Shown: positions 54,955 through 59,687, numbered from the stretch's first letter. The stretch is DNA of 64,000 nt from a virus (IMGVR_UViG_3300032247_000914:7084-71083); one strand, 5' to 3'. Made by a program: numbers and translations. Notes: generated by a model not told the origin, from the sequence alone.

Positions 54955-54983
54955 ATTATACACTGGTTTTCAGTGTAAGTCAA
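54955..54983 (-). promoter_or_regulatory. sigma70-type promoter
   Basis: TTGACT-17-TATAAT. Confidence 0.75.
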
Positions 54984-58154: not shown

Positions 58155-58937
58155 TTAACCTTTGAAACTGTCGTAAAACACAACAGTTTCTTCAACTTTA
58201 TCTATTATAACATCATTCGTGTAGTTGTCAATAGCATTTGAAATCCAACAATACAATAAATCATTTTTAATGTCACCATCTAAATGGTTACATCTTGGGT
58301 CATTGCTTAGTATCTTAAACATATTGGCACGTCTGGGCCATTGCCCGGCTACACTAACGGCCATTAGTGGACTAACAATTTCTACACCGTTGGTCCACTT
58401 TATGGGATATTTGATATCTCGAATAAAATTGCTATTGCTTAAATCTAACGCAAGAGTTTTCTCTACATTGACCGCGATACCATATTCCCATAAATGTATG
58501 ATTTTTACACGATCTCGAATTTGTGGTAGCAACACAGTGTCAAAGTACAGTAGTGCTGACTTCAATTCTAAAACATCTTTGTCATAATCAAACAAACTAT
58601 CAAAATACCCGCACACAGCTTGCCATATAACAGGATCTTCTTTGTGTATCCTAGATCCTGGAACAGTGGCCCCGCGATGGATATATCTATGTGTTCTATG
58701 AAATACTGTGCCATTACTGGGCCAAGTAAACACAGCCACATCTGGCATATCTTCCAACAGCTCTTGAAACTGATGAATCATGATGTCCCATACACCGCAC
58801 CCGCTCACACCTAAATGGCAAATCTCAGCATTATAGTGATTGCGAAGTTTTTCAATGTAGCTAAGATAATAGTAGCGTTCGCTGTGTTTGTTTGATACAA
58901 CATGGCAAAAGCTAGACCCATAAAATCCAATTTTCAT
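58155..58937 (-). CDS. Hypothetical protein, SGNH-like N-terminus
   Basis: MKIGFYGSSFC...LGVSGCG; start reassigned outside the tRNA-like gene. Confidence 0.55.
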   Translation of the reverse strand: MKIGFYGSSFCHVVSNKHSERYYYLSYIEKLRNHYNAEICHLGVSGCGVWDIMIHQFQELLEDMPDVAVFTWPSNGTVFHRTHRYIHRGATVPGSRIHKEDPVIWQAVCGYFDSLFDYDKDVLELKSALLYFDTVLLPQIRDRVKIIHLWEYGIAVNVEKTLALDLSNSNFIRDIKYPIKWTNGVEIVSPLMAVSVAGQWPRRANMFKILSNDPRCNHLDGDIKNDLLYCWISNAIDNYTNDVIIDKVEETVVFYDSFKG

Positions 58938-58949
58938 AAAATGACCAAG

Positions 58950-59024
58950 TGGTGGGTGATGCGGGAGTTTAACCCGCAACCTCTGTCAAGTAACAACAGC
59001 GCTCTAACGTTGAGCTAATCACCG
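58950..59024 (-). pseudogene. Degenerate tRNA-Val(TAC)-like gene
   Basis: Cloverleaf and CCA intact; C1-C72, G32, U37, T loop TTAAACT. Confidence 0.6.
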
Positions 59025-59039
59025 CGACAAATATTTATG

Positions 59040-59290
59040 GCACAGTGATTGCCTTGATAAAATTTAACACACTCTCCGCTATGCGTTTTGACACCGTCGG
59101 AAGGTGAAATAGAATGTGTGTATTAAAGCACTCTTCATGGATGAACCCACTTGCCTCGCGGCCCGAGAATGCTTTAATACGCTACCATTTTACGCATCTA
59201 GGTTATCGCCCTAGACTTACCATCCGGTAGGCCGCCCACATTAAGCCGATGTTTATAGTGCCAGCAGGGTCGCGTTCCCTATACACACTT
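59040..59290 (-). ncRNA. Candidate ~250-nt structured RNA, first unit after the attenuator
   Basis: GTATTAAAGCATTCT/AGAGTGCTTTAATAC, TCTAGG/CCTAGA and ACACATTCT/GAGAGTGTGT helices. Confidence 0.5.
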
Positions 59291-59300
59291 TTACTACGCT

Positions 59301-59334
59301 AAAAACAAAAAACCCCAGTTATTTCTAACTAGGG
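59301..59334 (-). terminator. Intrinsic terminator of a predicted attenuator
   Basis: CCCUAGUUA-GAAA-UAACUGGGG followed by UUUUUUGUUUUU. Confidence 0.85.
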
Positions 59335-59384
59335 TCCTTGGAGTTTGGGTAAACTTGCGTTTACATCATGTCCTCCCGGACCCT
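59331..59384 (-). promoter_or_regulatory. Predicted antiterminator
   Basis: AGGGUCC-G-GGAG pairs CUCC-AA-GGACCCU; inner GUAAAC-GCAA-GUUUAC; shares CCCU with the terminator. Confidence 0.7.
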
Positions 59385-59501
59385 TGTAATCTCTGGTGTG
59401 CGATCTGAGTTTAGACTATTAATCGCTAACCAATAGGTAGGCATAAAGCCGGCCTGTTTGGCTATGGAATAATGTTGTCTAAAATTCGTTACGCTTTTCA
59501 T
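59361..59501 (-). CDS. Leader peptide (46 aa)
   Basis: MKSVTNFRQHYSIAKQAGFMPTYWLAINSLNSDRTPEITRVREDMM; last codons form the antiterminator 5' arm; weak RBS. Confidence 0.6.
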   Translation of the reverse strand: MKSVTNFRQHYSIAKQAGFMPTYWLAINSLNSDRTPEITRVREDMM

Positions 59502-59558
59502 TTCTGTTCTCAGTTTTCTCTTTTAAAAATTTATACGCTTTTTACAACGTATGCTTCT

Positions 59559-59587
59559 ATTGTAATGCCTTTCAGCATCCTTGTCAA
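59559..59587 (-). promoter_or_regulatory. sigma70-type promoter of the leader/tRNA array
   Basis: TTGACA-17-TACAAT. Confidence 0.85.
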
Positions 59588-59658
59588 CACCTTTTGTAAA
59601 TTTATTTTGTTGTATTTTTACAACACCTTTGGTTTACATTGTTTGCTAACTTGTTTCT

Positions 59659-59687
59659 ATTGTAAGTTTATTTATGTCGGCTGTCAA
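59659..59687 (-). promoter_or_regulatory. Second tandem sigma70-type promoter
   Basis: TTGACA-17-TACAAT, 100 bp upstream of the first. Confidence 0.8.

Follow-up and report, generated by a model that had tools for sequence, protein, structure and literature searches.

Background

The reasons for the large sets of tRNA genes in phages, and the occasions on which these genes are used, are a matter of debate, and the proposals for their role include the matching of codon usage, compensation for host tRNA decay and escape from tRNA-cleaving defences. The expression of bacterial genes can be coupled to translation by transcription attenuators. In the classical leader-peptide attenuators the terminator competes with an alternative helix that is partly made of the same bases, and which of the two forms depends on where the ribosome is. 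The T-box elements likewise couple tRNA supply to the choice between a terminator and an antiterminator, a feature in which the phage element described here would resemble them.

The closest described system is the upstream ORF (uORF) of the whiB7 gene, whose efficient translation allows a Rho-independent terminator to form and whose stalled translation leads to antitermination (10.1101/2023.06.02.543512). Expression of whiB7 is induced by many amino acid, tRNA and synthetase defects. The whiB7 uORF of M. smegmatis contains every amino acid except cysteine, and that of M. tuberculosis lacks several (10.1101/2023.06.02.543512).

Here we describe an element at the head of a phage tRNA gene array that, judging from its sequence and that of its relatives, is likely to be a ribosome-mediated transcription attenuator which senses the decoding of every amino acid.

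Organization of the locus

The locus was analyzed in a window of 64,000 nucleotides, taken from a 71-kb IMG/VR viral contig of an uncultured phage. The completeness of this contig is estimated at only 20%, and its source is therefore a giant phage. The window contains 33 tRNA genes, all on the minus strand, and a single copy of the leader and terminator element (Table 1). The parts listed in the initial annotation, namely two tandem promoters, a 46-codon ORF, an antiterminator with the stop codon in its inner GCAA hairpin and a mutually exclusive terminator with a U tract, are all present as described. The two helices exclude each other because they overlap: the CCCU at 59334-59331 is both the end of the antiterminator 3' arm and the start of the terminator 5' arm.

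Table 1. Features of the putative attenuator locus and its downstream region, in window coordinates
Feature	Coordinates	Strand	Description
Promoter P1	59659..59687	-	TTGACA-17-TACAAT; 11/12 consensus match
Promoter P2	59559..59587	-	TTGACA-17-TACAAT; 11/12 consensus match
5' UTR (putative)	59502..59552	-	predicted fold with a 7-bp hairpin at the 5' end; then A-rich, with purine-rich GAGAACAGAA up to the ATG
Leader ORF	59361..59501	-	46 sense codons plus TAA; 19/20 amino acids
Internal ORF helix	59393..59433	-	UUGGU..GCGA / UCGC..ACCAG; nine pairs (RNAalifold)
Antiterminator hairpin	59331..59384	-	AGGGUCC-G-GGAG ... CUCC-AA-GGACCCU
Antiterminator outer stem	59384-59378 with 59337-59331	-	AGGGUCC/GGACCCU
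Antiterminator inner stem	59376-59373 with 59343-59340	-	GGAG/CUCC
Apex hairpin	59364-59349	-	GUAAAC-GCAA-GUUUAC; encloses the stop codon (59363-59361)
Terminator	59313..59334	-	CCCUAGUUA-GAAA-UAACUGGGG; 9-bp G+C-rich stem, GAAA loop
Terminator U tract	59301..59312	-	11 U in 12 nt; conserved in all relatives
Element D	59025..59300	-	conserved structured RNA, 276 nt; predicted first product of read-through
tRNA-Val(UAC)	58950..59024	-	first tRNA behind the switch
261-aa ORF	58155-58940	-	between tRNA-Val and tRNA-Tyr; no Pfam or PHROG match
Sigma70 promoter	58204..58231	-	perfect, 12/12, with TG extended -10; before tRNA-Tyr and the main array

The promoter scores denote the match to the sigma70 consensus; by our own rough estimate, about 0.1 sites scoring 11/12 are expected by chance in a stretch of 6.5 kb. 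In distant relatives both hexamers of P1 are invariant and the spacer between them is variable, and in most relatives a promoter lies about 86-90 nt ahead of the leader ATG, as P2 does here. Transcription from P2 would start near 59552. The purine-rich stretch before the ATG is retained throughout the family and is the putative site of ribosome binding; many members have only a weak or distant Shine-Dalgarno signal. The sequence GAGAACA is also found upstream of the ATG of a neighbouring epimerase-like gene. Between P1 and P2 there is a perfect inverted repeat, TGTTGTA-AAAA-TACAACA (59608-59625, minus strand), which is nearly invariant in most distant relatives, with flanking bases that vary. 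It could serve as the operator site of a regulator acting on the two promoters.

Extent and phyletic distribution of the family

A peptide search followed by a profile search recovered 313 proteins of about 43-56 residues, and a second search, against representatives of 50%-identity clusters, gave 88 hits at E<=0.001. From look-ups of the proteins and from scans with a protein pattern and with a nucleotide pattern, the latter filtered by nhmmer, 38 distinct DNA loci were collected; the members of the family are related, and counts across their sequences do not represent independent events. The family was found solely in metagenomic phage contigs: the cultured-phage collection gave no match by DNA or protein, and the nucleotide motif does not occur in 185,579 prokaryote species genomes. 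Rfam, at both curated and permissive thresholds, detected nothing in 59000-59600.

The leader ORF of the family members spans 42-56 codons. The modules are arranged in the order promoters, leader ORF, hairpin with terminator, an optional second ORF (ORF2), element D and tRNA genes. Wherever the flanking sequence suffices, between one and four near-consensus sigma70 promoters precede the element, in many cases at intervals of about 90-100 nt, and in 33 of 35 loci tRNA genes of the same strand follow at a distance of 250-1200 nt. In one subgroup (L024-L027, L030, L037 and L038) the element is embedded in the array, just behind tRNA-Met and tRNA-Leu. The -10 box of the nearest promoter in these loci ends 10 nt before the ATG, and their mRNA may thus be almost leaderless.

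A close relative is another IMG/VR contig (G001), which is about 90% identical over 4.9 kb. Against a background divergence of about 10 differences per 100 nt, this contig (compared as locus L004) shows no differences from the window in 59554-59378 (177 nt) and in 59346-59067 (280 nt). All 15 differences within 59554-59067 are confined to the 31-nt apex of the antiterminator (59377-59347), where, despite the different sequence, the apex hairpin persists and the stop codon keeps its place.

Evidence for selection on translation of the leader ORF

The reading frame of the leader is open in all 38 loci, and the other frames contain 1-7 stops. An assessment that makes no use of the protein sequence comes from the family members found by nucleotide pattern and nhmmer alone: the spacing between invariant nucleotide anchors takes six lengths between 51 and 66 nt, all of them multiples of three, so that the gap is a multiple of three in 33/33 family members versus 34/85 unrelated pattern hits. 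The frame is thus strictly kept, and yet the leader displays almost no codon periodicity. The entropies of its core at codon positions 1, 2 and 3 are 0.43, 0.58 and 0.63, and the synonymous share of differing codons is 0.17, as against 0.11 and 0.16 in the shifted frames. ORF2 from the same loci served as a control and showed the periodicity of a normal coding sequence, with entropies of 1.22, 1.07 and 1.46 and a synonymous share of 0.18 versus 0.07-0.08 in the shifted frames. A core peptide motif, IAKQxG..W.AINSL..DRTPE, is conserved in the family, and the variable positions swap between unrelated residue types. Searches of Pfam and PHROG with the leader peptides yielded no family match. From these patterns it appears that the act of translation is under selection, and that the peptide sequence is not the main target. 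A short ORF in the 5' leader whose translation is selected is also a defining trait of attenuators.

The leader additionally contains stretches, ATAGCCAAACAG and GATCG, that are invariant at all three codon positions. These, together with the lack of substitutions relative to G001, point to a further function at the RNA level that lies outside the attenuator model. RNAalifold predicts a helix inside the ORF, which is kept by one-sided changes of G-C to G-U and C-G to U-G; none of the family sequences has a compensatory double change, and this helix is thus no more than a plausible candidate for a pause or folding element. A scan for more covarying helices inside the ORF retrieved only invariant or one-sided pairs.

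Conservation and covariation of the competing helices

The initial annotation had proposed that the pairing be checked for conservation and covariation upstream of the tRNA arrays of related phages, and there both helices prove to be conserved with compensatory changes. RNAalifold did not recover the antiterminator from MAFFT alignments because its apex is too variable to be aligned, and the outer stem was hence evaluated with explicit structures in place of alignment folding. The seven base pairs of this stem are 98.4% paired across 36 sequences and four of them show compensatory changes, a result reached by none of 500 shuffles. These changes include A-U to G-C and C-G to U-A, and in one lineage the stem is GGGCUU/AAGCCC. 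The terminator is 94.4% paired in the family and has two compensatory pairs. Across the family the segment common to the two helices is CCC(C/U), and its last base covaries in both: in the antiterminator it forms G-C pairs in 21 cases, A-U in 11 and G-U in 3, and in the terminator C-G in 21, U-G in 11 and U-A in 4.

The length of the antiterminator hairpin ranges from 13 to 29 pairs. The frame in which its 5' arm is read varies among the family members, all three being represented, and it is therefore the RNA arm, rather than the peptide that it encodes, which is conserved. In all 38 loci the stop codon is situated in the apex of the hairpin, as compared with 27/38 and 20/38 for the first stop of the other two frames. 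It lies 8-27 nt past the 5' arm, and 17-31 nt separate it from the 3' arm that follows, the latter distance being 23 nt in the window. Given the size of the ribosome footprint, a terminating ribosome at such a position would keep the 5' arm unpaired, and the 3' arm would stay available for the terminator. The locus thereby displays two other typical features of attenuators, a terminator between the ORF and the downstream genes and an alternative helix that a ribosome can reach.

The 258-nt transcript folds far better than shuffled sequences (z = -6.3). When either helix is forced, the antiterminator differs from the terminator in energy by -1.8 +/- 2.3 kcal/mol and is the favoured state in 34 of the 38 loci. 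Such nearly equal energies are suited to a switch, but they imply that the choice between the helices is not settled by thermodynamics alone: branch migration could give rise to the terminator even when no ribosome is present, and the outcome would hinge on kinetics.

The leader peptides contain nearly every amino acid

The initial annotation counted 19 of the 20 amino acids in the peptide, which is correct for the window, where only cysteine is missing, and a count of 19 or 20 turns out to be the rule in the family. Among 103 leaders (family proteins of 40-56 residues) the complete set of 20 is present in 82 and 19 amino acids in the other 21. Permutation of the residues inside each alignment column gives a mean of 18.89 amino acids (sd 0.07), against 19.80 observed, and a complete set in 26% of the shuffled sequences, against 80% observed. 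For random peptides of the family's composition the probability of reaching 20 is 0.03. Of the representatives of 50%-identity clusters, 60/62 have at least 19 amino acids. By comparison, ORF2 mostly has 16-17, and 46-residue windows from the long ORFs of this phage have 15.6 on average.

The rare amino acids are especially informative. No leader of the 103 lacks histidine and 90 have a single copy of it, with this sole copy occurring in at least eight different alignment columns. Cysteine, tyrosine, phenylalanine and valine show a similar pattern, and the position of the single histidine and cysteine codons differs between lineages. In 31 of the 38 loci all 20 amino acids are found within the 34-41 codons that precede the hairpin arm. 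This suggests that selection acts on the presence of each amino acid and not on its position, which is the pattern that a sensor sampling every aminoacyl-tRNA would show. The near-universal set of 20, with the rare residues at lineage-specific positions, strongly supports the earlier suggestion of a general sensor of translational health. The run of one regulatory codon that is common among attenuators was not found in these leaders, which have 19-20 amino acids, many of them in a single copy.

The four different arginine codons (AGA, CGC, AGG and CGG) previously remarked upon do occur in the leader of the window, but they are not a trait of the family, as 27/38 leaders use only two. The codon usage of the leader falls in the lowest 1.2% of the 46-codon windows of this phage. 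Most of the rare codons are G+C-rich and make up the hairpin, and the low codon score therefore does not indicate rare-codon sensing; we accordingly rejected a specific sensor of this kind.

Genes and structured RNA downstream of the terminator

Element D is present in about 37 of the 38 family loci, where it follows the terminator or, if present, ORF2, and always precedes the first tRNA. It shows no substitutions relative to G001, and covariation supports its helices, which include a long helix around UAUUAAAGC/GCUUUAAUA and the hairpin AGGNAACGNGNCCU. Rfam gave no match to it. We had presumed that it resembles RNase P RNA in its motifs, and this identification was rejected, since none of the RNase P models matched and the order of the motifs was wrong. 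On the opposite strand element D contains a promoter-like site, TTGACA-16-TAGAAT (59088-59115, plus strand; 11/12), which is probably a chance match because its -35 box is not conserved in the relatives.

ORF2 is a conserved protein of about 53 residues that is absent from the window and is found in 24 relatives, including L013 (3227-3394) and L018 (3225-3386). It is characterized by the motif H-T-L-T-x-E-Q-x-x-K-L-I-x-x-K-x-E-R-A, and belongs to no Pfam or PHROG family. A strong ribosome-binding site of the AAGGAG type is located 16-21 nt after the U tract. As ORF2 lacks its own promoter, its synthesis would depend entirely on read-through.

The extent of the genes under control of the switch was overstated in the initial annotation, which counted about 23 tRNA genes up to the next consensus sigma70 promoter at 54983. 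About 22 tRNA genes do lie in that interval, but the next promoter is wrongly placed there: a 12/12 promoter, located inside the 3' end of the 261-aa ORF and kept in G001, already precedes 21 of them. It feeds the main array independently, and the switch alone would thus control here only element D, tRNA-Val and the 261-aa ORF. The main array is predicted to receive transcripts both from the promoters of the switch and from this internal one. In several relatives tRNA-Tyr directly follows element D. The tRNA-Val gene and the 261-aa ORF look like an insertion that brought in or created the new promoter. In the wider family, 22 of 34 loci have no promoter of at least 10/12 between the terminator and the first tRNA, and the other 12 have one just before the first tRNA.

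Predicted mechanism and alternative explanations

The core of the initial reading, a translated leader with a mutually exclusive antiterminator and terminator at the head of a tRNA array, is supported by the comparative evidence: the anatomy is conserved, both helices covary, the frame is strictly kept, the stop codon always lies in the apex, the leaders carry an essentially complete set of amino acids and tRNA genes lie downstream. In the mechanism that we propose, host RNA polymerase would initiate at the two strong tandem promoters and transcribe the 46-codon leader, the last third of which would constitute the 5' side of the antiterminator hairpin. If no ribosome occupies the hairpin as the polymerase reaches the U tract, the hairpin would form first and withhold the CCCU, and the polymerase would continue into element D, tRNA-Val and beyond. 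If a ribosome keeps pace and unwinds the 5' arm or rests on the apex stop codon, the 3' arm would remain free outside the ribosome footprint, the terminator would form and a leader RNA of about 250 nt would be released. Read-through into the tRNA genes would probably take place only when ribosomes cannot finish the leader. As the 35-40 or so codons before the hairpin arm hold essentially one of every amino acid, any shortage of a charged tRNA, or a general slowing of translation, would be expected to delay the ribosome and raise tRNA transcription, with negative feedback on decoding capacity as the net effect. Translation of the leader ORF, the polarity whereby stalling gives read-through, and the nature of the physiological signal are what we infer from this arrangement.

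The locus could also be an ordinary small-protein gene that is highly expressed from its own promoters and ends in its own terminator, with the hairpin merely stabilizing the 3' end and the tRNAs arising from incidental read-through or other promoters. The strict preservation of the frame, the conserved core peptide motif, the succession of strong tandem promoters and a strong terminator, which suits high expression, and the separate promoter before the tRNAs in the window and in 12/34 relatives would all agree with this. Yet the leader lacks the codon periodicity that ORF2 shows, exchanges unrelated residue types at its variable positions and matches no Pfam or PHROG family. Moreover, a folded protein of 46 residues has no evident need for all 20 amino acids or for a single histidine or cysteine that relocates, and the location of the stop codon in the apex and the conserved, covarying bases that hairpin and terminator share would be left without explanation. 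We therefore consider a small-protein gene quite unlikely. A role for the product as an RNA, namely as a stable species of about 250 nt from P2 to the terminator that acts in trans or binds a factor, with translation of the ORF being incidental or controlling the folding or release of the RNA, is likewise unlikely, if somewhat less so. In its favour are the folding of the 258-nt transcript (z = -6.3), the stretches invariant at every codon position, the conserved internal helix and the 177 nt free of substitutions relative to G001 on a background of about 10%; a precedent is the Sinorhizobium rnTrpL, a terminated attenuator RNA that is reported to act in trans (PMC6614838). A non-coding small RNA has no frame constraint, however, and here a single frame is open in 38/38 loci and indels come only in threes. 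Nor would a purely non-coding RNA be expected to hold a complete amino acid set, and no Rfam family matches; a function of the RNA is nevertheless compatible with the attenuator as an addition to it.

A different action of translation on the hairpin is also conceivable, such as the exposure of a site at which RNase III or RNase E would cut the tRNA precursor away from the leader, or a switch of the opposite polarity, with translation favouring read-through. Long hairpins resemble RNase III substrates, and that of the family has 13-29 pairs; the nearly equal energies of the two helices, furthermore, leave the polarity to kinetics. Against this, the stop codon precedes the 3' arm by 17-31 nt, so that a ribosome positioned there cannot mask the terminator, a placement that fits termination as the consequence of translation. 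Processing of the hairpin would also not account for the four bases shared with a covarying terminator or for the conserved U tract, and we regard this group of explanations as very unlikely.

A broader proposition is that the attenuator constitutes a universal decoding sensor of giant phages, in which the leader has been selected to contain every amino acid once and the tRNA array, along with element D and ORF2, is switched on when any one of the charged tRNAs runs short. We would give this generalization about an even chance of being correct. The shortage could stem from starvation, host shut-off or tRNA-cleaving defence nucleases, and an anticodon nuclease, as suggested in the initial annotation, with PrrC and PARIS as candidates, is a possible trigger of the switch.

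Implications

In the literature on the control of phage tRNAs we found no published account of tRNA genes being controlled in this manner. If the attenuator operates as proposed, the output of phage tRNAs would be regulated by demand through a cis-acting sensor for the full set of 20 amino acids, which would then represent the first known case of cis-regulatory feedback on tRNA genes. It might also amount to a built-in counter to anticodon-nuclease defence. The rule of one of each amino acid would represent an unusual form of selection, on the composition of an ORF and not on its sequence. The sensor would offer a direct experimental handle, as the withholding of one amino acid or tRNA can be combined with a measurement of read-through, and the family is large and diverse enough for mutants to be designed on the basis of covariation.

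Comparison with known attenuators

The T-box binds one uncharged tRNA directly, needs no ORF and precedes synthetase or amino acid genes, whereas the preserved frame shows that in the phage element the ORF matters. The T-box riboswitch model (RF00230) produced no hit on the 600-nt region at E values up to 10. The classical leaders trpL, hisL, leuL, thrL, pheL and ilvL share with the phage element a short translated leader ORF and an intrinsic terminator, and none of the Rfam amino acid leader families matched it. Unlike the leaders of the trpL and hisL type, the phage leader has no run of a single codon but each amino acid about once, and its ORF is longer (42-56 codons); further differences are the stop codon inside the antiterminator apex and the tRNA genes downstream. 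The phage element also has three competing segments in place of the classical four, which implies that an untranslated leader should be read through and not terminated.

Like the whiB7/wblC uORF of Actinobacteria, the phage element combines a rather long uORF whose composition is mixed with a Rho-independent terminator and an antiterminator that competes with it. Searches of Rfam and Pfam indicated no homology to this system, the downstream genes are tRNAs and the motif is absent from the prokaryote species genomes scanned. The two differ in their outputs, which are tRNA genes and a structured RNA in the phage and a transcription factor in the case of whiB7, and in the lack of alanine enrichment in the phage leader. 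The complete amino acid set is near-universal in the phage family, in contrast to the M. tuberculosis whiB7 uORF, which does not contain several of the 20. On this comparison whiB7 would be the closest precedent for the phage element, with which it appears to share its logic and not membership in a family.
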